Shown here in pieces: positions 1-62,864 of a stretch of DNA of 64,000 nt. The stretch's first letter is position 1. Every line of letters starts with the position of its first letter. Source of the DNA: Candidatus Aenigmatarchaeota archaeon. GTDB lineage: Archaea > Aenigmatarchaeota > Aenigmatarchaeia > QMZP01. The stretch is taken from positions 12,708 to 76,707 of the forward strand of contig JAVZYR010000001.1 of assembly GCA_038999435.1 (NCBI GenBank), in the 5' to 3' direction. The position numbers and the translations under genes were made by a program. Below the pieces are notes generated by a model. That model worked only from the letters and a program-made list of their open reading frames with translations, did no database searches and was not told where the DNA came from.

Positions 1-859
1 GCTGGCATGGGAAACCAGCTGCCCTTACGCATGAAATTGCGCCAGGAGAGATTGATAATGAAACACCTGATGGTGCGTCAGATAATGTAATCTTAAATTT
101 CGCTTCATTGTGTTTTGCAGGTGGAATCACTACAGCACTGAAACTGCTTGGTTCTGACTTACATATCCCTGTTGATTTTTGACCACCTTTGACATCACAA
201 TATTGCCCCTCTGAGCAAGGACAATCGCAGCAACAATTATTAACACTTTCGCCAAGTTCTGTTTGGCATTGCCCATCTCCACATATCCAGGAAGATATGC
301 TGATGTCTGAAAATCCAGCCGAGATATTATAAATGGTCTCATTTATTGCATAATCTGGTATGCTGAGGTTAAATGCAATTTTATTTGATGTCAATGTGTA
401 TTGGCCCTCACCACATCCAGCAAGCGCAGGTATTTCAATTGTGCAATTTATCTTGTTATCCCAAACTGCGCATTTTGATGTATCAATGTTGCGTGTCAGG
501 TTGCCAAGCGTGTAGGAAGCAGAACTGATGTATGCACCTGTTGGCATATTAACAATCTTTACTGTAACATTCGCTTCATGTCTATTGTTACAGCCAATAA
601 AAGATGTTGGTGTGGTTTGAATATGCTGAAGGCTTATGTCACTGAGTTGTTTGCATGTTTGTGTTCCTGTGTCGCAGTACCATCCAGTAGGACATGGATT
701 ATTAGGATCGCATGACTCAAATTGCGCTCTTGCGCTTGGTATGATTTGTGCTGGTTTCCACTCAGCCATTAGTGCAGATGATACCCACGTCCAGCTAAAG
801 ATAAGCCATGCTACCAAAATCGCGCCAATTTCAATTACAAGGAGCCTTTTGTTCAACAT
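1..859 (-). CDS. Partial (C-terminus beyond window start) Cys-rich secreted/membrane-anchored protein. N-terminus MLNKRLLVIEIGAILVAWLIFSWTWVSSALMAEW...; ORF is open to position 1.
   Basis: Manual minus-strand translation from ATG at 859..857 shows no stop down to position 2. It was missed by the ORF track because it has no in-window stop. Hydrophobic signal/TM follows the start; many Cys (CDPNNPC, CCCDCPC). Its start overlaps the stop of the upstream gene (ATGTTGA). The listed 130..342 ORF is an out-of-frame artifact inside it. Confidence 0.55.
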   Translation of the reverse strand, partial: MLNKRLLVIEIGAILVAWLIFSWTWVSSALMAEWKPAQIIPSARAQFESCDPNNPCPTGWYCDTGTQTCKQLSDISLQHIQTTPTSFIGCNNRHEANVTVKIVNMPTGAYISSASYTLGNLTRNIDTSKCAVWDNKINCTIEIPALAGCGEGQYTLTSNKIAFNLSIPDYAINETIYNISAGFSDISISSWICGDGQCQTELGESVNNCCCDCPCSEGQYCDVKGGQKSTGICKSEPSSFSAVVIPPAKHNEAKFKITLSDAPSGVSLSISPGAISCVRAAGFPCQ

Positions 860-3165
860 ATCTGAAGGCTGCAAAGCGCTATTTGTTTATAGTCAAAGCA
901 TGCCATTATTTTTAAACATTCTGGTGGAAGGTTATAGGTTGGTTTCCATGGTAAATTTGGAAATATAGCAGCTTTGTAGGACTCTTGTATGCAGAATGGT
1001 ATAAGGGTAGACTTACCATATACACAATCATTAAGTATGGCAAAATTATTTATTTCATCATAGCAACCCATATAAACCATGCATGTTGCATTACACGGAT
1101 CACATGGATTTGTGGTACTTCCTGGGATACAACCAGGTGGAGTGTTTTTGTAAAAACCTCCACATGCCCTGAATTCATTCTGACATTGCTTAAGTATGCC
1201 ATTTTGTGCTGAATTTTCACTGCATCTGTCTGATACCTGAAGAACAGCAATTGATTTGGTCCCACATCCTAAAAGCCAATCTATCGCCTCTCCTATGGCT
1301 ACCCCTCTACATTTATCATGGTCGCTTTCAGAATCGCATCCTCCCATATCCTCACAGCAATCATCTTTTGCAGAATCCCTCACATCATCAGCCATGTCCA
1401 TAATATTTTTCATATCCGGCACAGTTACTATAAGATTTGCATCATATGGTGGTATGTTAATTTGCGTGCTTGATGTCTCAATGGGTGTTGCTCTGTGCTG
1501 ATATTTACCCATTGTCTTACCTTCGTATGTGAATATTTCAGCTCCAGCCGTCTGTAGTCCTTCTTTACTCATTACCCTGGCATAGACATTATATAGCCCA
1601 GGCGGTATATAGTCAACTGTCACGCTATGTTTTATAATCAATGCATCACCAGTCTGTTTGATGCAATCCAGTTCGCTTAAATTGTTGCAATCGATAATCT
1701 TTGATAAATTGTAATTCATAACATAATATTGTCTGCTGCCATCAGTTGAATTGAAAATCAGCGTGACTGCCTCAACATCCACAGGTGCATATGCATCATG
1801 GCATGAACCTGTGTCCTTATAGAAGCTGAATTTTATTTTTGATGGCTTGAGCAGCACTACAGTCAGACCTACAAGCTCAGAGACAGACTTTCTCTCTCTG
1901 TATATTGAATATCCAGGGGCTGATACGGTCAGATTTCCAATCGAAGCTGTGACAGCACCTTTTACATTTCCATTTGCATCTGTTGTGAATGCACAGCCCT
2001 CATAATATACAGTTGCGCCGGGTATGGGTGCCCCTGATTGGTCAATCACAGTTATATTAATCGGATTTGTTGGGTTTTCGCAAGATATGGCAGGTGTAAG
2101 TGTTGCAGCACAATCATTGGCAGGCCTCATATTATCTACAGCAACATTTATTGCAAATTTGAAAAAATTGTCAGCCAGCTCATCATACACAGAGACAATA
2201 GCAGGATATCTAAATGAATATCGAATGTTATACCATTGAATGCAGATTTGCACAGTATAAGAAAATACACCAGAGAGCCTTAATATCGGCTCTGCAGGCC
2301 CAATAAATATCATCCCGCTCTGTGTGGCATAAAGAAGTGGCAGCCCAAGCTGTGGATTAAGGTCTGTATATTTCTTGCCATCAAGGTCAGGGATGTTCAA
2401 CACAGGGCTATGCTTTGTGTTTACAGGTTTCCACCATTGAATATTGCTCAACGTGTACTCAAAAACACCCCTCATTAGGGCACTTGTCTCCTCAGGCATA
2501 AGAAGTATTGTCTGCCCACATTCTGTCAGCCATCCAAATGTTGGTAGCTGAGAATAATACAGATTTTTGATTGTTGCCCATTCAAGTGCTCTTGTGTTTG
2601 CCTGAAAATTTGTGAAGTCCTTGGCAAATTTATATATATAGCCAAACCTTGTCGGAACCGTGACAACGTAAGGCTGTTCAAGCTCTTCTCCTCCCACTTT
2701 TGTAGGAAGCCATAGTGCAAAATTTATCTTGTCTTCCTCAATCTTTATTTCAGCCTTTACATCTGTCTTATCAAATGAAACCTGCTTGCCATCGATTGTC
2801 ATGGTATTATTTAGAGATGCAAGAACATCGCCCATTGTTTTATTTTTCAGATTGTTTTCTATCTCTTGCAGGGTAGGGTAGGTTTTGTTTCCACAGGCAG
2901 ACCAATATGCAACAGGCGTGTCTATGTAAAGCGGGCTGTCTGCTGGTGGGCTGAACAAACCTCCCTGTGCTTCTATTATCTCAAGATTTTCAGTGAGCCT
3001 CTCCTTTATGATACTTAATATCTGGCTGTGTACATGCTTTAGATGCTCTGGAATTGCTGGAGAGACAGGGAACGCAGGTGCAGCAAGAAATAGATAATAT
3101 ATTGCAATTATAGCAATGATAACAATACCAATAATAGCAATAAATTCCAGCTGCCCTTTAGCCAT
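853..3165 (-). CDS. Large (770 aa) N-terminally membrane-anchored extracellular protein with a Cys-rich C-terminal region; function unknown.
   Basis: Long ORF. N-terminal TM (FIAIIGIVIIAIIAIYYLFLAAP). C-terminal third rich in Cys pairs (CCEDMGGCD, CDPCNATC). Confidence 0.6.
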   Translation of the reverse strand: MAKGQLEFIAIIGIVIIAIIAIYYLFLAAPAFPVSPAIPEHLKHVHSQILSIIKERLTENLEIIEAQGGLFSPPADSPLYIDTPVAYWSACGNKTYPTLQEIENNLKNKTMGDVLASLNNTMTIDGKQVSFDKTDVKAEIKIEEDKINFALWLPTKVGGEELEQPYVVTVPTRFGYIYKFAKDFTNFQANTRALEWATIKNLYYSQLPTFGWLTECGQTILLMPEETSALMRGVFEYTLSNIQWWKPVNTKHSPVLNIPDLDGKKYTDLNPQLGLPLLYATQSGMIFIGPAEPILRLSGVFSYTVQICIQWYNIRYSFRYPAIVSVYDELADNFFKFAINVAVDNMRPANDCAATLTPAISCENPTNPINITVIDQSGAPIPGATVYYEGCAFTTDANGNVKGAVTASIGNLTVSAPGYSIYRERKSVSELVGLTVVLLKPSKIKFSFYKDTGSCHDAYAPVDVEAVTLIFNSTDGSRQYYVMNYNLSKIIDCNNLSELDCIKQTGDALIIKHSVTVDYIPPGLYNVYARVMSKEGLQTAGAEIFTYEGKTMGKYQHRATPIETSSTQINIPPYDANLIVTVPDMKNIMDMADDVRDSAKDDCCEDMGGCDSESDHDKCRGVAIGEAIDWLLGCGTKSIAVLQVSDRCSENSAQNGILKQCQNEFRACGGFYKNTPPGCIPGSTTNPCDPCNATCMVYMGCYDEINNFAILNDCVYGKSTLIPFCIQESYKAAIFPNLPWKPTYNLPPECLKIMACFDYKQIALCSLQIC

Positions 3166-9485: not shown

Positions 9486-11999
9486 ATGAATATTCCTAAA
9501 CTATTATTATTAATTATAACAATATCTGCTATTCTAATCATTTTTATCAGATTCACAGGTCTATTTATTCCTCCTGCTGGCCCTCCTACTGTCTACACAG
9601 TCTGCTCTTCTGGTTGTGATTATGACAGCCTGACAGCATGCCTTTTTACTATAAATAATACACAGAATATTTGCAACATAACGGGCCCTGGCTTTTGGTC
9701 AATAAATGATAGCTATTATTTTATTAGCAATGCCGGTGAAATAGTTGAAATAGCATCAGATGATGTTATTTTTGATTGTAATAATTCAATTTTAAGAACT
9801 ACCCTCATCAATTCTTTTGTAATACGAATGAAAAAAGTTGATAACACAACAATAAGAAATTGCATTTTTAATACAATTGATAACACAATAGATTTACAGG
9901 GAAATAACATAAAAATATACAACAATTCATTTTATGGCGATTGGTATTCTTTGCGGGCTTATGACTGGGTTTACAATATATCAATTTATGATAACAATAT
10001 ATCAACAGGATTTGATCCCTGGTTTAGGGTAGTTAATTGTACCATAGAAAATAATAACATATCTAACGGTTTAAGAGGAGATTTTAACGATAGTATAATA
10101 AGAAATAATAACATTAGTTGCGTGTATATAGTTATCAATGGTAAAAACACAATTTTTGAAAATCATCAGCAAATCTGCGAATCAGGAGACGCTTTACAAT
10201 ATTTTGGTGGTATAAACATAACAATAAGAAATAATAGTTTTATAAACAAAACAACAGGAATAATTATAAATTCAGCTAATGAAACGAATATATATAATAA
10301 TACAATCGTAACATATATTCCAACTGATTATGGAGGGATAAATTCATCAGGCACAAATTTTAATGTTACAATAATCAATAACACCATCACAGGCCCATAT
10401 AAAACTTCAATTGGAATTTTAGGTAGTGGCAATAAAATCATAAATAATACAATAAGCAATACAACACAAGGGATTTATATTAATGGAAGTAATCATAACA
10501 TATCTAGAAATGTAATAAAAAATGCAAGCCAAGAATGTTTATACACAGATTCTTTCACCGAGTCTAGCATAATCTCAAACAACACATTCGAGGATTGCGG
10601 TGCTGTTTCTGGTCCATACGAAGCGTATCTAAGCTCATACTCTCCACTGCAGTATAATGGCAACAACTACACTATTGTTTTTTATGCAAATTCAGATATA
10701 ATCGACACTGTGCAAGTTTCAGAAGATAACACAAATGTTTCTGACATAGTCACAGGTGAAAATAACTTCAGCCTATGGTTAGGTACATGTGAGGATGGCT
10801 CAAGATGGACAGTTTATGTCGAAGAGCCAGAGAGTATGTCGTGCTCAGATGTATTTAATTTAGGTTGTAATGGCATATGTGACTTTGAACAGGATGGCTA
10901 CTGGATTGCAAATGGCTATGGTCAAAACTACACATTAAATCAATCACCGCAGGTCTCTGTCATTCCCGGCTACACAGACCCTGCATGGCTGAGATACAGC
11001 TCATGGTATGTCCAGGATTACTATCCAATTGTTCTTTATGGCTCCTCTGGAAACAACATAACAAAGAATTGGATAAAGGATGTGAACAAAAAGAACAACT
11101 ATTCTATCTACTCAGATACAAATGCACAGGACAGGATATGGCTAAACATGCTTCTCTCAGGTGGCATAAACATCACAGGCACTGAGCCAATCTTATGCGT
11201 GAATGGTGAAGGAAACTTTTATGGCGAGGGCAGTTTAGGCGTGCCTGAGAACGATTGTGGTCCTGCAAGCATCACCGCACCAACAGCAGGTGCATACACA
11301 GGTAGCATAACAATTCAATGGACTGCCCAATCCTCACCAGAGCCTGTAACATATGATGTCTATGCAAAGAATTTAGCAACAGGCGAGATGACAAAACTTA
11401 CAGAAACAACAAGCCTTTCATATTTATGGAACCTATCAGGATACTTAGGAAATTATAAAGCAATCATTATTCCATGGATCTCTGGCTCAAGGATTAATGC
11501 AACATGGGCAGAGTCAGGCATACTTCAGCTTGGTCAGGGTACAGGTGGAGGCAATGTCACTGTTACAATCCTTACATCCATCACAATATCCCTACCTGTA
11601 GATACAGTCAACTTTGGCACAATGCAACTTGGCCAATCTGACAACACAACAGATAACAGCCCACCACCATTCATCCTTCAAAATGATGGTTCTGTGCCCG
11701 TCAACATTACAATAAATGCAACTCAGCTTTGGTACAGCAGCCTTGGTTCAGGCACAAGCAGTTATTATCAATTCAAAACAGAATGTAATGAGTCATCATG
11801 TGTGCCAGACCCAGATAATGACCTCGTTACATCCTGGACAAACATACCAATAAATGAACAAGCAATCCTTGCCTGTTCAAATCTTCGCTTCATAGACAAC
11901 CAAGATACGGTTAAGATTCACATAAAGGTTACAGTTCCGGTTGATGAGCCAGCAGGTTCAAAGAACAGCACAGTCACATTCACAGCAAGCCAAGCATAA
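9486..11999 (+). CDS. Giant Asn-rich cell-surface protein with an N-terminal signal/anchor, right-handed parallel beta-helix repeats, and a C-terminal about 145 aa module shared with downstream small proteins.
   Basis: N-terminal hydrophobic segment; many IxNNxI/NNTI PbH1-like repeats; very dense N-x-S/T sequons. C-terminal region from about 11550 is homologous to the 12251 ORF. Confidence 0.7.
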   Translation: MNIPKLLLLIITISAILIIFIRFTGLFIPPAGPPTVYTVCSSGCDYDSLTACLFTINNTQNICNITGPGFWSINDSYYFISNAGEIVEIASDDVIFDCNNSILRTTLINSFVIRMKKVDNTTIRNCIFNTIDNTIDLQGNNIKIYNNSFYGDWYSLRAYDWVYNISIYDNNISTGFDPWFRVVNCTIENNNISNGLRGDFNDSIIRNNNISCVYIVINGKNTIFENHQQICESGDALQYFGGINITIRNNSFINKTTGIIINSANETNIYNNTIVTYIPTDYGGINSSGTNFNVTIINNTITGPYKTSIGILGSGNKIINNTISNTTQGIYINGSNHNISRNVIKNASQECLYTDSFTESSIISNNTFEDCGAVSGPYEAYLSSYSPLQYNGNNYTIVFYANSDIIDTVQVSEDNTNVSDIVTGENNFSLWLGTCEDGSRWTVYVEEPESMSCSDVFNLGCNGICDFEQDGYWIANGYGQNYTLNQSPQVSVIPGYTDPAWLRYSSWYVQDYYPIVLYGSSGNNITKNWIKDVNKKNNYSIYSDTNAQDRIWLNMLLSGGINITGTEPILCVNGEGNFYGEGSLGVPENDCGPASITAPTAGAYTGSITIQWTAQSSPEPVTYDVYAKNLATGEMTKLTETTSLSYLWNLSGYLGNYKAIIIPWISGSRINATWAESGILQLGQGTGGGNVTVTILTSITISLPVDTVNFGTMQLGQSDNTTDNSPPPFILQNDGSVPVNITINATQLWYSSLGSGTSSYYQFKTECNESSCVPDPDNDLVTSWTNIPINEQAILACSNLRFIDNQDTVKIHIKVTVPVDEPAGSKNSTVTFTASQA

Positions 12000-12044
12000 A
12001 AGCTTATAAGGTTTTTAATACCAATAATTAAAATAGGAGGTAAA

Positions 12045-12239
12045 ATGGCATCCAACAAATTGCTGGCTGCATTGATTTTAGTGCTACTTGTAGCATCGCT
12101 TGTTGGTATGTATATTTTGATTGCACCGCTAATTCCAGTCGCGCCAGCCATAGCAACAGAGACAGGAGTTGTTAGCCTTTATGTTGCACCACAGCCATAC
12201 TCTACAGGAGGTATGGTTTCTGTGGTCGTAATAGGATAA
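12045..12239 (+). CDS. Small secreted or pilin-like protein (64 aa); a truncated paralog of the N-terminal part of the next gene.
   Basis: Strong SD (TAGGAGGTAAAATG); N-terminus MASNKLLAALILVLLVASLV parallels MVSNNTLAALILVAIVISLV of the 12251 ORF. Confidence 0.5.
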   Translation: MASNKLLAALILVLLVASLVGMYILIAPLIPVAPAIATETGVVSLYVAPQPYSTGGMVSVVVIG

Positions 12240-12250
12240 GGAGGTAAAAG

Positions 12251-12832
12251 ATGGTAAGCAATAATACACTTGCAGCCCTTATCTTGGTAGCAATAGTGAT
12301 ATCCCTGGTAAGCATAGCAACAACCCTAAACATTGCCTCAAGGATACCCATAACCCTAACAGGAGGCATATCAGGCACAACACAAGTATCAGTCGCAACA
12401 GCAATCACAATCACCCTGCCAGTAAGTACAGTAAACTTTGGCTCAATGTCCCTTAATGCAGAGGATGATACAACGGACAACAGCCCAGGCCCGTTCATTG
12501 TTCAAAATGACGGTTCTGTGTGTGTCAATGTGACAGTTAATGCAACACAACTTTGGTCAGGAACAGGCGCAACAGGTACATCGACATACTACAGATTTAA
12601 ATCAGAATGCAATGAGGCAAATTGCGTTAACAACGAAACAGAAGATCTTGTGAGCTCATGGACAAACATGCCAATTGCATCTGCTGCAACAAAGCTTGTC
12701 AACAGACTAAGATACACTGATTCACAGGATACTGTGAAGGCGCACATTTATCTAAAGGTCCCTGCAGATGAGCCAGCAGGTCCAAAGAGCAGTACTGTGA
12801 CATTTACATCAGAAGACGCAGGCGGCTGCTAA
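12251..12832 (+). CDS. Secreted protein (193 aa) made of a signal/anchor plus the beta-rich module shared with the C-terminus of the 9486 protein.
   Basis: SD AAGGAGGTAAAAGATG; roughly 60% identity by eye to 9486 residues about 690-837 (ITITLPVSTVNFG...DNSPGPFIVQNDGSV...NATQLW...YYRFKSECNE...VTFT). Confidence 0.65.
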   Translation: MVSNNTLAALILVAIVISLVSIATTLNIASRIPITLTGGISGTTQVSVATAITITLPVSTVNFGSMSLNAEDDTTDNSPGPFIVQNDGSVCVNVTVNATQLWSGTGATGTSTYYRFKSECNEANCVNNETEDLVSSWTNMPIASAATKLVNRLRYTDSQDTVKAHIYLKVPADEPAGPKSSTVTFTSEDAGGC

Positions 12833-12889
12833 AATAAAAAACTTTTCATTTTTTCTTTTTTTTAAATATTTTCACAGATATCTATAAAG

Positions 12890-14059
12890 ATGAAAAGGAT
12901 TTTCTCAATCATCTTGTTATTGACACTGGTTTTAATTTTACCATCAGCATTAGCCATTGGCATGTCACCTGCAAGGATAGAGATAGATTTTCAGCCAGGT
13001 GCAAACCTAACTTACGATTTCTGGGTTCTAAATAATCTTAATGAAACGCGTTCTATAGAGCTATATCCAACAGGCGAGCTTGCTGACAGGATAACCATTT
13101 ATGGTGATAAACAATTCGAACTTGAAGGACAAAAGGTTAGGCAATTTTCATTTTCCATACTACTACCTGAAGAACTTGAGCCAGGGCTTCACAAGTCAGG
13201 GATAGGTGCAATAGAAGGCCTGCCAAGTGGCAGGGAAGGCGGGACACAACTTGCTGCACGCGCAGCAGTTATAATGCAGGTATGGATAAGGGTACCATAT
13301 CCAGGAAAGTATGCAGAGATTAGTATAGAGGCAAAAGATGTTGAACTTGGTCAGCCAACACCATTCACAATCCATGTCAAAAACCTTGGCTCTGAAGACA
13401 TCACAGCAGAGGATGAGATAGAAATATGGAATGGTGATAAGAAAGTTGCAGAGCTGAGCGCAGGTTCTGTTTCAGTAGCTGCAAAAGGCACAGAAAATCT
13501 TTATGCAAGCTGGAAAGCAGACAGTGCAGGTGTATACAAAGCAATAGCAAATGTGAAATATGATGGCAAAAATGCATCAGCTTCAACATTTTTCAGGGTT
13601 GGGGCTCTTGACATAGAAATATTAGACCTCTCAAAAGAGATTGTGCAGGCCGGAGAGATAGCAAAGTTTAAGGTTAAACTAAAAAGCAAATGGAATGCAG
13701 AGATTAGAAACATTTATGCCGATGTTGAAATACTGAAAGATGGAAATGTTTTAAAAACAGGGCGCTCAGCGCCATTCATGTTGGGTGTATGGGAAGAAAG
13801 GGAAATCCCCATTTATGTTGAAACACAGGGCCTTGAGCTTGGTGTCTATGATGCAAAAGTTAAAGTATATTTTGATAATAGGACAAAGGAAAAAGATTTC
13901 TCTTCTAGATTGGAGATTGTTGCATACAAACCTTTTGAGATATCCCTACCTTATATCATCATTTTGATATTCTTCATATTCGTACTACTCTTGATAACCT
14001 TATTATTATTAAAAAGGAGGAAGGAATCGCATGAAAAAAGGTCAAGAAGAAAAAAATAA
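12890..14059 (+). CDS. Surface protein with a signal peptide, a beta-sandwich (CARDB-like) ectodomain, and a C-terminal TM plus polybasic tail.
   Basis: N-terminal signal MKRIFSIILLLTLVLILPSALA; C-terminal LPYIIILIFFIFVLLLITLLLLKRRKESHEKRSRRKK. Confidence 0.6.
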   Translation: MKRIFSIILLLTLVLILPSALAIGMSPARIEIDFQPGANLTYDFWVLNNLNETRSIELYPTGELADRITIYGDKQFELEGQKVRQFSFSILLPEELEPGLHKSGIGAIEGLPSGREGGTQLAARAAVIMQVWIRVPYPGKYAEISIEAKDVELGQPTPFTIHVKNLGSEDITAEDEIEIWNGDKKVAELSAGSVSVAAKGTENLYASWKADSAGVYKAIANVKYDGKNASASTFFRVGALDIEILDLSKEIVQAGEIAKFKVKLKSKWNAEIRNIYADVEILKDGNVLKTGRSAPFMLGVWEEREIPIYVETQGLELGVYDAKVKVYFDNRTKEKDFSSRLEIVAYKPFEISLPYIIILIFFIFVLLLITLLLLKRRKESHEKRSRRKK

Positions 14060-14480
14060 AATCAAGCTAAAACTAACAAAAAAACTGTGCATTTTGGTTA
14101 TAGTTTTAGTTGCATTTGCATCTGTACTTGGCACTATTTTATGGTCATCACCTGAAATAAAAAACATTGATATCTATCTTACAGTTGGCAATTACACAGG
14201 CATAAACGTAAACTCATCCGCACTTTGGTTTGGTACAATCCCGCAGAATGCTGTTGCACAGCGTAATATCATAATAAATAATGGTGATGCATGGCCAAGG
14301 CGAGTCTGGATAAAGGCGCAAGGAGAAATTGCAAAATGGATATCTGTTACGGATAATGGCTTTTTGCTAAAGCCAAATGAAGGAATGCAGGTAGGTGTTG
14401 TTGTGAGCATACCACCTGATGCTGCCCAAAAAAATTATACATCTCAACTCGAGATTGTGCTTATCAGGACAATATTTTAA
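14031..14480 (+). CDS. Small membrane-anchored or secreted protein distantly related to the shared module.
   Basis: N-terminal TM; LWFGTIPQNA...IIINNGDAWPRRVWIKAQGEIAKW parallels VNFGTMQLG...FILQNDGSVPVNITINATQLW. Confidence 0.45.
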   Translation: MKKGQEEKNKIKLKLTKKLCILVIVLVAFASVLGTILWSSPEIKNIDIYLTVGNYTGINVNSSALWFGTIPQNAVAQRNIIINNGDAWPRRVWIKAQGEIAKWISVTDNGFLLKPNEGMQVGVVVSIPPDAAQKNYTSQLEIVLIRTIF

Positions 14481-42164: not shown

Positions 42165-43817
42165 ATGTTAAGCCAGAAAGACAAAGATGTAGTTTTAAGG
42201 TTCTGTCTACAAAATGCAATTTTACATAATGGAAAGGCTGATGAAAAGGCAGTTCTTAGTAAAGTATTAGGTACAAGGCCAGAGCTTAGAGTAAAAATAG
42301 ATGAACTTAGAAAAGAGATAAACAAAATCATTAAAGATATAAATAAACTTGACATATCTAAACAAAAAGAAAAACTTGAAAAAATAGCACCAGAACTTCT
42401 TGAAAAAGAAAAAGAAAAATTTGAACTTCCAGATATCAAAACAAAAGAGAAGTTTGTCACAAGGTTTGCACCATCACCAACAGGCCCTTTAAATATATTT
42501 CATTTTCTCAGACCAGTATACATACCATATTATTATGCAAAAAAATATCATGGAATATGGATATTGAGATTCGATGATACTGACCCGGCAAGAATAGAAA
42601 GGCAATTTTACGATTTTATAATTGAAGATTTGAGAAATTTTGGTATAATCCCAGATAAAATCATATATCAATCTGATAGCATTGAAGATTGTTATTCAAA
42701 GGCAAAAAAACTTTTAGATGAGAAAAAGGCATACATATGCACATGCCCTGTCGAAAAATTTAAGGAATTAAAAGAAAGAAAAATCAATTGCCCATGCAGG
42801 GATGGAAGGCATGCAAAGCTCTGGTCAGAAATCCTTACAGGAAAAATAAAAGAAGGTCATGCAGTTGTCAGGCTTAAAACAAGCATGCAGAGTCCAAATC
42901 CGGCTATAAGGGACCCACCTCTGCTTAGAATCATAGAGGCAGAGCATCCGAGAAAAGGTAAAAAATATAAATTGTGGCCTGTGTATAACTTTGCTTCAGT
43001 TATATGTGACCATAATGAAGGCATAACCCACATTTTTAGAGGAAAGGAGCATGAACATAATACAGAAATTCAGAAAATGATATATTCTGCATTAGGATGG
43101 GATACCCCTTCTGTGATAAATTTTGGCATGATATACTTTCCAACTGAAAAGATGCACACAAGGGACATAAAAAGGGCAATAAAGGAAGGTAAGCTGAAAG
43201 GATGGGATGATCCACGGTTACCAACATTAAGAGCATTATTAAGAAGAGGTTTTGACCCTGAAGCATTGAAACAACTTTCTTTAAAAATTGGCCTGACAAA
43301 AACAGACATCAAACTTGGCTGGGAAAATATAGAAGCATTTAACCGAAAGATTATAGACCCAAAATCTAATAGATATTTTTTCGTTCCAAACCCTGTCAGA
43401 ATATCCATTGATGGGATAAAAACAAAAGAGGTCAAACTTAAATTACATCCTGATTTTGGTGAAAGAGGTGAGAGGGTAATACCAGTAGAACGAGATAGGA
43501 TATATATAGATAGGAGCGATTGGGAAAAGATGCAGGGAAAGGAGGTAAGGCTTATTGGTTTGTGCAATATAAGGCTAAAAGGTGATAAAGGTGAATGTAC
43601 AGGTTTGGAGATCAAAAAGGAGATTCAAAAGATTCAATGGGTCTCAGAACCTCATTTAAATCTAAGGCTCATCAGGCCAGAAGGAGAAATTAGCGGTTTT
43701 TGCGAGCCTGATTTGGTTAAGGTTGAAATAGGGAAAACTGTGCAGTTAGAGCGGATAGGTTTTGGCAGGGTCGATGCGAAAAATTCTGAGATTGTGATAT
43801 ATTGGGCACATCAATAA
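42165..43817 (+). CDS. gltX: Glutamyl-tRNA synthetase, archaeal type.
   Basis: HIGH-like FAPSPTGPLNIFH; archaeal-type N-terminal helical domain. Confidence 0.85.
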   Translation: MLSQKDKDVVLRFCLQNAILHNGKADEKAVLSKVLGTRPELRVKIDELRKEINKIIKDINKLDISKQKEKLEKIAPELLEKEKEKFELPDIKTKEKFVTRFAPSPTGPLNIFHFLRPVYIPYYYAKKYHGIWILRFDDTDPARIERQFYDFIIEDLRNFGIIPDKIIYQSDSIEDCYSKAKKLLDEKKAYICTCPVEKFKELKERKINCPCRDGRHAKLWSEILTGKIKEGHAVVRLKTSMQSPNPAIRDPPLLRIIEAEHPRKGKKYKLWPVYNFASVICDHNEGITHIFRGKEHEHNTEIQKMIYSALGWDTPSVINFGMIYFPTEKMHTRDIKRAIKEGKLKGWDDPRLPTLRALLRRGFDPEALKQLSLKIGLTKTDIKLGWENIEAFNRKIIDPKSNRYFFVPNPVRISIDGIKTKEVKLKLHPDFGERGERVIPVERDRIYIDRSDWEKMQGKEVRLIGLCNIRLKGDKGECTGLEIKKEIQKIQWVSEPHLNLRLIRPEGEISGFCEPDLVKVEIGKTVQLERIGFGRVDAKNSEIVIYWAHQ

Positions 43818-57797: not shown

Positions 57798-59111
57798 ATG
57801 TATTCTGCAAAAGTGAAAGTTGCGCTCCGTGGAATAAAGCCAGGGGAATGGGTTCATATAGAAACAAAAGGCGCATCGTACGAAGGCATTCTCATGCCAA
57901 GGCCAGAGACAGGAGATCCAGATTGTATTGTTTTAAAGTTGCAGTCAGGATACAATATAGGACTCAAATTCGAACGTGGAATGAAAATAAAGAAATTGAG
58001 GAAAAGTCCTCCAAAAATTTCAGGTGCAAAGCCTTTGGCATTCAATCCAAAGGCACCTGCAATCTCTTTGATTGCTGTTGGAGGAACAATTGGTTCAAGG
58101 ATTGATTACAGAACAGGAGGCGTACATGCACTCATGAAGCCAGAAGAATTTCTTTTCAATATCCCAGAACTAAAAGACATTGTAAGAATAAAGCGTGTTT
58201 GTAGACCTTTCACAAAAATGTCAGAAGATATGGACCCAAATGATTGGCAGATATTAGCAAAGACAGTTGCAAAAGAGATAAAGGATGTTGAGGGTGTTAT
58301 TATTACACACGGCACAGACACCATGCACTATACATCAGCTGCGCTTTCATTTATGTTGAGAAATCTCTCAAAGCCTGTTGTACTTACTGGTTCGCAAAGG
58401 TCATCAGACAGAGGGAGTTCTGATGCAGGTATGAATATTATATGTTCTGCTTGGATTAGCCGTTCAGACATTGCAGAGGTTGGAATATGCATGCATGAAG
58501 GCATGTCAGATGACTGTTGTATTTTTATACATGGGACAAAGGCAAGAAAGATGCATTCGAGCAGAAGGGATGCATTTAGGTCGATAAATGATGTGCCGAT
58601 TGCAAAGGTTTGGCCTGATGGCAGGATGCAGATTTTAAAAGGATATAAAAAAAGGTCTGATGAAGATGTAATAGCAGATACAAAGTTTGAGCCAAGGGTT
58701 GCTTTGCTAAAGGTATATCCGGGTTCTGACCCAAGCATACTTGAGTTTCTCATATCAAAAGGCTATAAGGGATTTGTAATTGAGGGCACAGGGCTTGGGC
58801 ATGTTCCCACACAGGCAAGGTGTAGTTGGATACCTGCGATAAAAAAGGCGATCAAGGCTGGTATACCTGTTATTGTGACAACACAAACATTGTATGGAAG
58901 GGTCAATCCACATGTCTATACAAATCTTAGGATTCTTTTTTCTGATGCTAAAGCGATACCAGGCGAGGACATGCTTCCTGAAACTGCATATGTTAAGTTA
59001 GGATGGGTTTTAGGCCATACAAAAGATATGGATGAGGTAAGGAAGGCCATGCTACAAAATATTGCAGGAGAGATAAATAACCGAAGTATACCGGAGGCAT
59101 ATCTATGGTAG
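57798..59111 (+). CDS. gatD: Glu-tRNA(Gln) amidotransferase subunit D.
   Basis: Asparaginase-like motifs VGGTIGS and HGTDTMHYTSAA. Confidence 0.9.
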   Translation: MYSAKVKVALRGIKPGEWVHIETKGASYEGILMPRPETGDPDCIVLKLQSGYNIGLKFERGMKIKKLRKSPPKISGAKPLAFNPKAPAISLIAVGGTIGSRIDYRTGGVHALMKPEEFLFNIPELKDIVRIKRVCRPFTKMSEDMDPNDWQILAKTVAKEIKDVEGVIITHGTDTMHYTSAALSFMLRNLSKPVVLTGSQRSSDRGSSDAGMNIICSAWISRSDIAEVGICMHEGMSDDCCIFIHGTKARKMHSSRRDAFRSINDVPIAKVWPDGRMQILKGYKKRSDEDVIADTKFEPRVALLKVYPGSDPSILEFLISKGYKGFVIEGTGLGHVPTQARCSWIPAIKKAIKAGIPVIVTTQTLYGRVNPHVYTNLRILFSDAKAIPGEDMLPETAYVKLGWVLGHTKDMDEVRKAMLQNIAGEINNRSIPEAYLW

Positions 59112-60547
59112 AAATAAAATGTGGTATCGAGATACATCAACAGTTGCTAACTCATAAACTTTTTTGTCCATGCAGTTCAGAAATGGTTGAAAGTGCAGAG
59201 GCTGAGTTTGCAAGAAGGCTAAGGCCTGTACCTGGTGAACTTGGCGATGTCGATGTTGCAGCACAATACGAATTTTTAAGGAACAGGCTCTTCATCTATA
59301 AAACATATCCAAAAGAGAGCTGCCTGGTTGAACTTGATGAAGAACCACCACATGCCATAAATTTTGAAGCTTTGGAAACAGCTATCATGGTCGCCTTGAT
59401 GCTAAAATGCAAAATACCAGATGAGATACATGTTATGAGAAAGATTGTAATTGACGGCTCGGATACAACAGGATTCCAGAGGACAGCACTCGTTGGGATG
59501 GATGGCTGGATAGAAACATCATTTGGAAAGGTTGGGATTACAAATGTCTGTCTCGAGGAAGAATCAGCACAAATATTAGGTAAAGAAGAAGGGGGAAAGA
59601 TTGTTTATGGTTTAAACAGATATGGCATACCACTCATAGAGATAGGCACAAGTGCTGAGATTAAAAACCCTGAACAGGCAAGAGAGGTTGCTGAGAAGAT
59701 TGGTATGATTTTGAGGTCAACGGGAAGGGTGAAAACAGGGCTTGGTACAATAAGACAAGATTTGAACATCTCCATAGATGGTGGTGAAAGGGTTGAGATA
59801 AAAGGTGTGCAATCGCTCAGTGCAATACCAATTGTGCTCGAGCTTGAGGCAAAAAGACAAGAAGCGATCATAAAATCAGGGCAAAAAGTTAAGCCAGAGG
59901 TGAGAAGGGCAAAACCTGATGGCACAACAGAATATCTCAGGCCATTACCTGGCTCAGCGAGGATGTATCCAGAGACAGATTGTCCGCCAATTGTGATAAA
60001 CAGGCAATGGCTTTCTGAAATAGAGCTAAGGCTTCCTGAAATGATTGATGAAAAAGTGAAAAGATATGTAAAGGAATACAAACTAAGTTGGGAGATTGCA
60101 TCACAACTTGTGCATTCTGATATGATTAATCTATTTGAATATCTTGCACAATGGGCAGATCCTCGCCTTGTTGCCTCTGTGCTTACAGGTGTGGTAAAAA
60201 ATCTGAAAAGGGAGGGTATTGCTGTTGAGAGACTTGAGCAAAGGCACTATCAGGTGATATTTGAAGCGGTTAAAGAAGGAAAGATAGCAAAAGAGGCAAT
60301 ACCAGATGTCATTCGCAAGCTTGCGGAAAGGCCTGAAAAGATGGATGAAGTAATAAAAAGTGTATCGGTTTTGGTTGGAGAAGAGGATGTAAGAAATGTT
60401 ATTAAGGATATAATAAAAAGCAAACCAGAGCTAAAATCTATGCCAAATCCATTTCAAGCCTATATGGGCATAATCATGGAAAGATTGAGAGGGAAGGTGC
60501 CAGGTAGTACAATAGCAAAGATATTAAAAGAAGAGCTGGCTTGCTGA
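59105..60547 (+). CDS. gatE: Glu-tRNA(Gln) amidotransferase subunit E (short form lacking the AspRS-like insertion domain).
   Basis: N-terminus aligns with archaeal GatE (IEIHQQL...KLFCPC; RPVPGELGDVDVAA; VIDGSDTTGFQRT; GTIRQDLNIS); overlaps gatD by 7 nt. Confidence 0.8.
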   Translation: MVEIKCGIEIHQQLLTHKLFCPCSSEMVESAEAEFARRLRPVPGELGDVDVAAQYEFLRNRLFIYKTYPKESCLVELDEEPPHAINFEALETAIMVALMLKCKIPDEIHVMRKIVIDGSDTTGFQRTALVGMDGWIETSFGKVGITNVCLEEESAQILGKEEGGKIVYGLNRYGIPLIEIGTSAEIKNPEQAREVAEKIGMILRSTGRVKTGLGTIRQDLNISIDGGERVEIKGVQSLSAIPIVLELEAKRQEAIIKSGQKVKPEVRRAKPDGTTEYLRPLPGSARMYPETDCPPIVINRQWLSEIELRLPEMIDEKVKRYVKEYKLSWEIASQLVHSDMINLFEYLAQWADPRLVASVLTGVVKNLKREGIAVERLEQRHYQVIFEAVKEGKIAKEAIPDVIRKLAERPEKMDEVIKSVSVLVGEEDVRNVIKDIIKSKPELKSMPNPFQAYMGIIMERLRGKVPGSTIAKILKEELAC

Positions 60548-60802
60548 TTTTGTAGGTCTTATTGAGGTAAAGAAAATGTATAAAGTTGCTATATCAACAA
60601 GCACGAATCCTATTATCATTGCAATGCCTTCGACAAATCTGCTTCCTGTTGCTAAGCATTCCTTCCCAAAAACAAAAGAAATACCAGGGCTACTATGAGC
60701 CAAGCAAAGGATGTGTGGTTTGATTGCCGAATCATAGATAAATAGCATAAAGAATACTGAAATGAAAACAATTGCCATTGTACATACAAGCACTATTTTC
60801 AT
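60524..60802 (-). CDS. Small membrane protein, hypothetical.
   Basis: ORF with hydrophobic helices; low support. Confidence 0.25.
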   Translation of the reverse strand: MKIVLVCTMAIVFISVFFMLFIYDSAIKPHILCLAHSSPGISFVFGKECLATGSRFVEGIAMIIGFVLVDIATLYIFFTSIRPTKSASQLFF

Positions 60803-60814
60803 TTTATCAAATCA

Positions 60815-60935
60815 TAGCCCCGGGCGGATTCGAATTCGGCAAGGGATACACCTTTCCGCCGTCTGTGGGTCCAGAGCCCACTATGCTTGACCAATATGTG
60901 CTTGCAATTTGTTGCAAGCTCTACACCACGGGGCT
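60815..60935 (-). tRNA. tRNA-Gln (CTG), 121 nt, with a 27-nt D-loop insertion and a 21-nt T-arm insertion.
   Basis: After removing AGCTTGCAACAAATTGCAAGCACATAT and AAAGGTGTATCCCTTGCCGAA, the 73-nt product AGCCCCGTGGTGTAGTGGTCAAGCATAGTGGGCTCTGGACCCACAGACGGCGGTTCGAATCCGCCCGGGGCTA closely matches archaeal tRNA-Gln. Confidence 0.75.
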
Positions 60936-60968
60936 ATATAATAAATTTAAAGAGAAGAAAAATAAAAT

Positions 60969-62864
60969 ATGAAGATTCTCTTTATACATGCTGATGGGAT
61001 AAAATGGGAATTGAAGAAAAAGGCAATAAAACAGGCAGAAGATGTTTCCAAAACAGAAAAGGCAAAGAATGTAAAAGATTGCCTTGTTTCTTTTATTGCA
61101 GTTGAGGCAGCTGATGAAAGACAACCAAAGGGTGTTTCGCAGAAGGCTGTAAATGAGATTTTAGATGTGTGCAAACAGGTAAAGGCAAAAACAGTTGTGG
61201 TATATCCTTATGCCCATCTCTCTTCAAATCTCGCAACCCCAACCCATGCCTTAAATATTTTAAAAGAGATTGAAACGCAACTCAAAGACAAAAAAGTAAA
61301 AGTATACAGGGCACCTTTTGGATGGTATAAGGGCTTTGAATTAAAATGCAAAGGTCATCCTTTATCAGAGTTGAGCAGGGAATTTGGACCTGCTGAGGTT
61401 GAAGCACTTGTGTCTGAATCACTAAAACAGGAAGAGAAGGTTAAATCAGAATGGTATATTTTAGAACCAAATGGAAAGCTTAATCCCATACAATTGATAG
61501 ATAAAAAGACAGGAAAGATAGAAGGTTTTGATTTTAGCAAATTTCAGAATCTTGAAAAATTCGCTGCATATGAGATGGCAAAATCCAGAATTGTCACACA
61601 GGAACCACCTCACATCAAACTGATGAAAAAATTAGAGATAGCTGACTACGAACCGGGCTCTGACCCAGGCAACATGCGCTGGTATCCAAAAGGCCGTTTG
61701 ATAAAATCCTTGCTTGAAGAATGGGTGACCCAAAAGGTGAAAAAATACGGCGCAATGGAGATTGAAAGCCCTGTGATGTACGATTTTGAACACCCTGCGC
61801 TGAAGGACTATCTGAACAGATTTCCTGCCCGTCAATACATCGTTGAATCAGCAAAGAAGAAATTTTTCTTGCGGTTTTCTGCATGCTTTGGCCAGTTTTT
61901 GATGAATGCAAGTATGAATCTCTCATATCGCCATCTTCCATTAAAGATGTATGAGCTAACAAGATATTCATTCAGATTAGAGAAGGCAGGTGAGCTGACA
62001 GGCTTGAGGAGGCTTCGTGCATTCACAATGCCTGATATGCATACAATATGTACAGACCTTGAGCAAGCAAAGGAGGAATATATAAATCAATTTCAGCTTT
62101 GCATGGAATGCCTTGCTGACTTGGGCTTTTCAGATGGTAGCTATGAAACGGCGATAAGATTTACAAAGGATTTCTGGAGTAAAAACAGAGATTTTGTGCT
62201 AAAATTGGTCAAGCTGCTAAAAAGGCCAGTGCTGATTGAGATGTGGAATTTCAGATATGCATATTTTGACCCAAAATTTGAGTTCAATTTTGTTGATGCG
62301 CTTGATAAGGCTTCTGCCCTCTCAACTGTGCAAATAGATCATGAAAATGCGCAAAGATATGGTGTGAAATATACTGATGCAGATGGCAAGGAGAGATTTC
62401 CAACAATTCTTCATTGTAGCCCATCTGGTGGTCTTGAAAGATGCATATATGCAATGCTTGAGAAGGCATGGAAAACAAACCCAGAAAGGGCTACATTACC
62501 ATTTTGGCTTTCACCTGTACAGATAAGGATATGTCCTGTAAATGACAAATTTGTCAAATTTGCCGAAGAGCTTGCAGAGAGATTTGAAAAAGATAGATTG
62601 AGGGTTGATATAGATGATAGAGCAGAAACCGTTGAGAAAAAAATACGGGATGCAGAGATGGAATGGATACCATTGATAATCGTTGTTGGCGAAAAAGAAA
62701 AAAAGAGCGGAAAGTTGGCTGTAAGATTTAGGGAAACAGGTAAGGTTGAACAGATGGAAGTTGATGATGTTTTAAAATGGGCAAAATCAAAAATCGAAGG
62801 CAAACCATTTAAAACTTTATCTCTACCTAAAATGCTTACAAAACGTCCGATATTTTTTGGATAA
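60969..62864 (+). CDS. thrS: Threonyl-tRNA synthetase, archaeal type with N-terminal editing domain.
   Basis: Archaeal ThrRS N-terminus MKILFIHADGIKWELKKKA; class II core; C-terminal anticodon-binding domain. Confidence 0.9.
   Translation: MKILFIHADGIKWELKKKAIKQAEDVSKTEKAKNVKDCLVSFIAVEAADERQPKGVSQKAVNEILDVCKQVKAKTVVVYPYAHLSSNLATPTHALNILKEIETQLKDKKVKVYRAPFGWYKGFELKCKGHPLSELSREFGPAEVEALVSESLKQEEKVKSEWYILEPNGKLNPIQLIDKKTGKIEGFDFSKFQNLEKFAAYEMAKSRIVTQEPPHIKLMKKLEIADYEPGSDPGNMRWYPKGRLIKSLLEEWVTQKVKKYGAMEIESPVMYDFEHPALKDYLNRFPARQYIVESAKKKFFLRFSACFGQFLMNASMNLSYRHLPLKMYELTRYSFRLEKAGELTGLRRLRAFTMPDMHTICTDLEQAKEEYINQFQLCMECLADLGFSDGSYETAIRFTKDFWSKNRDFVLKLVKLLKRPVLIEMWNFRYAYFDPKFEFNFVDALDKASALSTVQIDHENAQRYGVKYTDADGKERFPTILHCSPSGGLERCIYAMLEKAWKTNPERATLPFWLSPVQIRICPVNDKFVKFAEELAERFEKDRLRVDIDDRAETVEKKIRDAEMEWIPLIIVVGEKEKKSGKLAVRFRETGKVEQMEVDDVLKWAKSKIEGKPFKTLSLPKMLTKRPIFFG

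Follow-up and report, generated by a model that had tools for sequence, protein, structure and literature searches.

Evidence for a tRNA-Gln(CUG) gene with two introns at non-canonical positions in an Aenigmatarchaeota archaeon

Overview

The stretch of Candidatus Aenigmatarchaeota DNA analysed here (64,000 nt, referred to below as the window) contains on its minus strand, at 60815..60935, what is very probably (probability about 0.92) a functional Aenigmatarchaeota tRNA-Gln(CUG) gene with two protein-spliced introns at the non-canonical positions 15/16 and 53/54. An earlier note on this DNA had described the two inserts and read them as introns; the analysis reported here confirms that observation and supports its interpretation. 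The evidence consists of the geometry of the splice motifs, the syntenic tRNA-Gln genes of related genomes, a set of metagenomic tRNA-Gln genes with an insert at the same T-arm site, and independent assemblies of the locus.

Gene structure and spliced product

The gene and its parts are listed below, with insert sites in Sprinzl numbering (D-loop = A14 G15 U16 G18 G19 U20 C20a A20b A21).

60815..60935, minus strand: complete tRNA-Gln(CUG) precursor gene, 121 nt, with A1 at 60935 and discriminator A73 at 60815
60921..60935, minus strand: exon 1, tRNA positions 1-15 (acceptor 5' strand, U8, G9, D-stem 5' strand GUGU, A14, G15)
60894..60920, minus strand: intron 1, 27 nt, site 15/16 in the D-loop, relaxed HBh' motif
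60856..60893, minus strand: exon 2, positions 16-53 (remaining D-arm, anticodon arm, variable loop of 4 nt, T-stem 5' strand GGCGG)
60872-60874, minus strand: anticodon CTG of the tRNA-Gln gene, inside exon 2
60835..60855, minus strand: intron 2, 21 nt, site 53/54 at the T-stem/T-loop boundary, complete hBHBh' motif
60815..60834, minus strand: exon 3, positions 54-73 (T-loop UUCGAAU, T-stem 3' strand, acceptor 3' strand, A73)

The reverse complement of 60815..60935 reads, in order, AGCCCCGTGGTGTAG (exon 1), AGCTTGCAACAAATTGCAAGCACATAT (intron 1), TGGTCAAGCATAGTGGGCTCTGGACCCACAGACGGCGG (exon 2), AAAGGTGTATCCCTTGCCGAA (intron 2) and TTCGAATCCGCCCGGGGCTA (exon 3). Removal of both inserts leaves a 73-nt cloverleaf that ARAGORN calls as tRNA-Gln(ctg), 73 nt. 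The spliced product has the anticodon loop CUCUGGA (7 nt, with U33) in a standard cloverleaf, the discriminator A73 and the first pair A1-U72, which the literature on GatDE and tRNA(Gln) gives as the first pair of archaeal tRNA-Gln. The 3' end of the gene reads ...GGGGCUA and is followed by UGA; since CCA is not encoded, it would be added after transcription.

The particulars given in the earlier note hold at each of these points. A 27-nt insert after GTGTAG in the D-loop and a 21-nt insert between GGCGG and TTCGAAT both have exact coordinates in the sequence, the D-loop insert forms the hairpin GCTTGCAA-CAAA-TTGCAAGC as described, and the 73-nt outline predicted after insert removal is a normal cloverleaf according to ARAGORN. 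The identity as tRNA-Gln(CTG) follows both from ARAGORN on the spliced product and from the match to an intron-free syntenic ortholog (below).

Splice motifs

A bulge-helix-bulge (BHB) motif has two 3-nt bulges that hold the splice sites and a 4-bp helix between them, and its geometry is taken here from the canonical 37/38 case. For an intron located after exon position x, the 5' bulge is x-1, x ↓ i1 and the 3' bulge is iN-1, iN ↓ x+1 (the arrow marks the splice site), while exon positions x-5..x-2 pair with intron positions iN-5..iN-2 to form the central helix. Both junctions fit this rule exactly, each with its two bulges and its 4-bp helix. The earlier note had made its reading depend on BHB or relaxed structures at both proposed junctions, and such structures are found at both in exact register.

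In intron 1 the bulges are AG↓A (5') and AU↓U (3'), and the central helix pairs GUGU of the D-stem 5' strand (G10-U13, 60923-60926) with ACAU (60896-60899), one G-U pair included. Its inner helix of 8 bp is perfect (GCUUGCAA/UUGCAAGC) and closes the loop CAAA, and the motif has no outer helix. In intron 2 the bulges are GG↓A and AA↓U, the central helix pairs CGGC (C48-C51, 60858-60861) with GCCG (60837-60840), the inner helix has 4 bp (AAGG/CCUU) around the loop UGUAUC, and an outer helix of 2 bp is present. When the intron sequences were shuffled with their junctions fixed (200,000 shuffles each), none of the shuffles of intron 1 and 0.015% of those of intron 2 gave a BHB as good, and chance falls far short of explaining the pattern.

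Folded alone, the intron-1 junction has exactly the HBh' structure as its minimum free energy (MFE) structure, and the MFE structure of the full precursor combines both intron hairpins with the acceptor and anticodon stems. At the intron-2 junction the MFE favours a register slipped by one nucleotide, with a 5-bp helix that includes G52-U, and the local fold energies are unexceptional relative to shuffles (z -1.94 and -0.36). Thermodynamics alone therefore do not fix the splice site of intron 2; the 4-bp BHB rule and the orthologs do, and the case as a whole rests on geometry and comparative data.

Other kinds of interrupted or intron-encoded RNA were considered and set aside. A split or permuted tRNA gene is ruled out by the three exons being contiguous and collinear within 121 nt. 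Self-splicing group I or group II introns have a core of hundreds of nucleotides, compared with 27 and 21 nt here, and Rfam gives no match to them at gathering or permissive thresholds. A C/D-box guide RNA inside the introns is likewise rejected, as both are too short (27 and 21 nt) and no C box (RUGAUGA) is seen by inspection.

Detection by standard tools and window-wide control

ARAGORN calls no tRNA in the raw 64-kb window, and the Rfam tRNA covariance model has no match in the window at either gathering or permissive thresholds. The earlier note had warned that standard tRNAscan covariance models may miss this gene; two other standard detectors, the Rfam tRNA model and ARAGORN, do miss it. 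Permissive Rfam matches to miRNA, snoRNA and sRNA families are sub-threshold and were dismissed as chance noise. With its intron options, ARAGORN returns three low-quality and implausible calls on the raw window, all of which were rejected; one is a 'tRNA-Ser' with a 98-nt intron that lies on the wrong strand and overlaps the tRNA-Gln locus.

As a control, candidate BHB introns were removed across both strands of the window (44,364 single removals and 1,072,345 removals of nearby pairs) and ARAGORN was run on each product. Single removals give zero tRNA calls. Double removals give six, all located at the tRNA-Gln locus, so no false positive arose in the rest of the window. The best of the six removes 60894-60920 and 60835-60855, the same two introns as proposed. 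No other hidden tRNA with up to two BHB introns is found in the 64-kb window. The tRNA-Gln gene is the sole tRNA detectable in these 64 kb, despite a large ribosomal-protein cluster (~20-32 kb) and many translation genes.

Genomic context

The tRNA-Gln gene is located between gatE and the divergent gene thrS.

57798-59111, plus strand: gatD (Pfam/NCBIfam)
59105-60547, plus strand: gatE (Pfam/NCBIfam)
60936..60968, no strand assigned: AT-rich spacer of 33 nt from the tRNA 5' end to the thrS start codon, read from the sequence
60969..62864, plus strand: thrS (threonyl-tRNA synthetase), divergent neighbour and synteny anchor

The best named relatives of the threonyl-tRNA synthetase (ThrRS) are Candidatus Aenigmatarchaeota MAGs (DPANN), with identity up to 77%; some DPANN lineages are among the groups for which the earlier note gave multiple non-canonical introns as characteristic. 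GatD and GatE together form the Glu-tRNA(Gln) amidotransferase that acts on tRNA-Gln, which is context outside the gene itself. An archaeal GluRS is encoded at 42165-43817 (Pfam/NCBIfam), and the genes of the indirect Gln-tRNA(Gln) pathway (GluRS, gatD-gatE and tRNA-Gln) all fall inside about 19 kb. The order gatE, tRNA-Gln, thrS is kept in the nearest relative (L001), and a DAHP synthase gene is inserted in two others (L003 and L004).

The 33-nt spacer presumably holds TATA-type promoter elements for both tRNA-Gln and thrS, judging from its sequence. With only 33 nt between the two genes, such elements must be shared or overlapping, and part of the thrS promoter may lie within the tRNA gene.

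Several features of the surroundings are recorded as side observations. GatE has only 480 aa, relative to GatE equivalog profiles of 622-630 positions, and its best matching stretch ends near profile position 265; Pfam GatB_N and GatB_Yqey are matched, and no insertion (GAD-like) domain is. The syntenic homologues in L001, L003 and L004 are likewise short (479-489 aa), and the protein may be a lineage-specific minimal GatE. Directly 3' of the tRNA and on the same strand, a hydrophobic ORF of 92 aa (60524-60802, minus strand) overlaps the 3' end of gatE. Neither Pfam nor NCBIfam matches this ORF, and a small gene is called in the same place in L001 (104 aa) and L086 (84 aa). Farther away, 1-3165 and 9486-14480 encode large predicted secreted or surface proteins (291, 770, 837, 193, 389 and 149 aa) that are Cys-rich or Asn/Thr-rich, with no or weak Pfam matches (beta-helix, one Ig-like), and these may be DPANN cell-surface or host-attachment proteins.

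Syntenic orthologs

The corresponding loci of relatives were fetched via ThrRS homologues, and in many of them a tRNA-Gln occupies the same divergent position. A permissive acceptor-pairing scan of these loci returned mostly false positives in coding sequence and was replaced; the junctions reported here come from a stricter filter combined with splice-aware alignment. All 17 syntenic orthologs splice to exactly 73 nt, and their introns are distributed over the following sites.

Site 15/16 (8 of 17): window, L003, L004, L005, L012, L015, L016, L018
Site about 20/21: L062 (Micrarchaeota)
Site about 21/22: L010, L014
Site 37/38: L005, L010, L020, L021, L031
Site 53/54, among the 17 syntenic orthologs: window only
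Site 59/60: L007, L010, L020, L031
No intron: L001/L002/L006, L022

The nearest relative (L001/L002/L006, ThrRS 77% identical) has an intron-free syntenic tRNA-Gln, AGCCCCGTGGTGTAGCGGTCAAGCATGGCGGGCTCTGGACCCGCAGACGGCGGTTCGAATCCGCCCGGGGCTA, which shares 69 of its 73 positions with the predicted spliced product and differs from it by U16C, A26G and the two substitutions of a compensatory 28-42 pair. This match fixes both splice junctions independently of the motif.

The introns at site 15/16 span 11-27 nt and have unrelated inner sequences, while exon and intron strands of the central helix co-vary in four combinations (GTGT/ACAT, GTGT/GCAC, GTCT/GGAC and GTCT/GGAT); in L005 this helix pairs at three of four positions. 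Elsewhere in the collection, an Aenigmatarchaeota-related locus (L010, 1256-1442, anticodon TTG) carries a 186-nt gene with three introns at ~21/22, 37/38 and 59/60. By eye and with unrefined junctions, L088 seems to carry inserts in the D-loop and at 37/38, and L089 has the 14-nt T-loop insert of L007.

Metagenomic homologues and covariation

Metagenomes were scanned for tRNA-Gln-like 3' halves with an insert at 53/54, using a pattern that did not demand pairing of the central helix. The scan returned 47 loci, 43 of them with a perfect T-stem, and all 43 have a fully paired 4-bp central helix in exact register. This set comprises 35 distinct genes, in which 13 distinct exon strands are matched by 12 distinct complementary intron strands. 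Intron lengths are 14-34 nt, and the bulges are mostly GG↓A and AA↓U, like those of intron 2 in the window.

Many of these genes also have introns in the D-arm. One of them, L136, combines 53/54 with a clean 15/16 intron (GTGT/GCAC, 7-bp inner helix) and a third intron at about 28. The D-loop inserts of two others (L095 and L135) give no clean BHB at 15/16 and were left out of the evidence.

Intron removal restores a cloverleaf, and the pairing of the central helix is kept by covariation among homologues. Across 31 distinct spliced sequences, 99.1% of cells are paired in the cloverleaf and compensatory changes occur at 12 of 21 pairs. The covariation score is 0.51; shuffles give 0.135 and slid partners no more than 0.09. 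Because the searches had required pairing in the acceptor stem and the T-stem, the covariation in those two stems is partly circular. The anticodon stem played no part in selection; it is 100% paired and co-varies at five of five pairs.

In two further metagenome contigs (L101 and L128), an intron-free tRNA-Gln(TTG) has directly behind it a duplicate, 22 nt long, of a tRNA 3' end (GGTTCGAATCCGACCGGGGCTA), which looks like the att-site remnant of an element integrated into tRNA-Gln.

Independent assemblies and alternative readings

Two Logan assemblies from other runs contain the locus at 99.4-99.5% identity. The first (L086, SRR27730043) includes both introns, and within the gene it differs solely in that the terminal loop of intron 1 lacks 3 nt, which gives the loop AATT on a 6-bp stem in place of CAAA on an 8-bp stem. 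The second (L087, SRR27730040) ends inside the gene with intron 1 included and is identical over the part present. In the AT-rich spacer 5' of the tRNA, L087 also shows an indel of 1 nt (TTTAAATTT vs TTTAATTT). Variation within the gene thus lies in the intron 1 loop, where the splicing model sets no constraint.

The same data bear on three other readings of the locus. The inserts could be two random insertions that disrupted a tRNA-Gln, leaving a decaying pseudogene and a lost functional tRNA, and both the failure of ARAGORN and Rfam to recognise the gene and its uninterrupted form in the closest relative would agree with this. There is nonetheless only a slim chance that it is correct: BHB geometry in exact register at both inserts is very unlikely to arise by chance, and BHB introns at the same two sites occur in many other lineages. 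The exons, moreover, carry just four differences from the intron-free ortholog over 73 positions, a compensatory pair accounting for two of them, and the only difference in the gene between populations is the intron-loop indel.

Slimmer still is the chance that the inserts are retained as extra hairpins of an expanded, tRNA-like RNA with another role. Both inserts do form stable hairpins, as such a role would have it, but with the inserts present the D-stem and T-stem strands are sequestered and a cloverleaf is impossible. An added structural element would also sit poorly with inserts whose length and sequence are unconstrained (11-27 nt at 15/16 and 14-34 nt at 53/54) and in which only the BHB elements are conserved, with an intron-free ortholog in the same position, and with the lack of any Rfam match to another RNA family at the locus. 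Finally, although the source is a metagenome-type assembly of an uncultivated organism and misassembly can yield short hairpin-forming inserts, spurious insertions into a normal tRNA gene through an assembly artefact or chimera are ruled out by the independent assemblies SRR27730043 and SRR27730040, which reproduce the locus with both introns and with intron 1, respectively.

Proposed maturation and intron history

The archaeal pathway of tRNA splicing is established: EndA cleaves at the BHB, RtcB ligates, and RNase P and RNase Z trim the ends. Applied to this gene, the pathway would have EndA cutting both bulges of each motif, RtcB ligase joining the three exons, and RNase P and RNase Z trimming the precursor ends. 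An archaeal GluRS would then charge the tRNA-Gln with Glu, and the GatDE encoded by the neighbouring genes would convert the product to Gln-tRNA(Gln).

As long as the introns are in place, they tie up the D-stem 5' strand and part of the T-stem 5' strand. The L-shaped core can therefore fold only after splicing, in keeping with an archaeal EndA that recognises the BHB alone. Since intron 1 is of the HBh' type without an outer helix, its removal should need a broad-specificity EndA, as reported for DPANN. HBh' introns need such an enzyme in the form of (alpha-beta)2, epsilon2, or alpha4 with an L3 loop, and alpha4 EndA with the L3 loop is associated with increased tRNA gene disruption in DPANN (PMC5829648). 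In the window, a Pfam scan for EndA (PF01974/PF02778) and RtcB over all 61 ORFs of at least 90 aa except thrS (precomputed ThrRS domains) found neither.

The distribution among relatives would make the 15/16 intron old in the clade and lost in the closest sampled relative. The 53/54 intron is present in no sampled close relative, which suggests a later gain in the lineage of the window, though the site recurs widely in environmental tRNA-Gln genes.

Comparison with known systems

DPANN and other archaea are already known to have non-canonical and multiple BHB introns, those at 53/54 and HBh' introns of the D-loop among them. The pre-tRNA-Pro of ARMAN-2 has an intron at 53/54 (PMC3239211). It resembles the gene described here in coming from DPANN, in carrying two non-canonical introns in one tRNA, one of them at 53/54 with a strict hBHBh' motif, and in that its introns were likewise found only by manual or BHB-aware searching. 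Unlike the window's gene, it is of the Pro isotype with its second intron at 59/60 in the T-loop (15/16 in the D-loop here), and it belongs to Micrarchaeota, with a characterised EndA of the epsilon2 type.

A D-loop HBh' intron beside a second intron is also seen in the pre-tRNA-Glu(UUC) of Methanopyrus kandleri, which combines it with a canonical intron and whose HBh' intron is cleaved in a manner dependent on the specificity of the EndA (Kaneta et al. 2018, PMC5829648). Its D-loop position appears to differ from that in the window (a fragment A21-G37 is mentioned in PMC5829648), its second intron is the canonical 37/38 one, and the organism is a euryarchaeon, whereas neither intron of the window's DPANN gene is canonical.

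For Thermoproteales, work by Sugahara et al. 2008 and Fujishima et al. 2010, reviewed in PMC4033280 and PMC8450103, describes tRNAs in which as many as three BHB introns occupy 'seemingly random' non-canonical positions, and rapid intron gain and loss among relatives. The tRNA-Gln genes described here share the multiple non-canonical BHB introns and their gain and loss among relatives. Thermoproteales differ in being Crenarchaeota and in having an (alpha-beta)2 EndA with a Crenarchaea-specific loop and documented intron transposition among tRNAs.

Further counterparts are the tRNA-Gln genes of the syntenic relatives and metagenomic contigs (L003-L020 and L088-L136), which are unannotated and share the isotype, the 73-nt mature form and the BHB sites 15/16 and 53/54. 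No sampled syntenic relative combines exactly the two introns of the window, and the intron sequences outside the BHB elements are unrelated.

Discussion

The main value of the finding is for annotation, and the understanding of the archaeal tRNA splicing mechanism is unchanged by it. When the gene is missed, annotation of the ARAGORN or Rfam type would make the genome look as if it had no tRNA for CAG codons. Missed tRNAs of this kind would lower completeness estimates for DPANN and could invite wrong conclusions about missing tRNAs or host dependence. Kaneta et al. 2018 noted that incomplete DPANN tRNA sets point to unidentified disrupted tRNA genes, in a survey without Aenigmatarchaeota (PMC5829648), and the gene described here is a concrete and well-supported Aenigmatarchaeota case of the disrupted genes predicted there.

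The comparative set, with 17 syntenic orthologs, 2 further relatives and 43 metagenomic genes, documents recurrent use of sites 15/16 and 53/54 with clear covariation between exon and intron. The intron models of tRNAscan-SE 2.0 were built from Crenarchaeota, Euryarchaeota and Thaumarchaeota, and for this reason the set could be used to train BHB models for DPANN.

A further interest is in intron turnover. Insertion sites in tRNA-Gln number at least six (15/16, about 20/21, about 21/22, 37/38, 53/54 and 59/60), and with the absence of both introns in the nearest genome and the intron-loop indel between samples they are the basis for a tentative and rather doubtful proposal, that in Aenigmatarchaeota and in uncultivated archaea neighbouring them tRNA-Gln is a hotspot for the turnover of BHB introns. 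If tRNA-Gln were enriched for such introns relative to other tRNAs, it would offer a natural system in which to date and dissect the gain and loss of archaeal tRNA introns. If true, it could also serve to test whether introns protect tRNA genes from integrating elements, given the att-like duplicates in L101 and L128.
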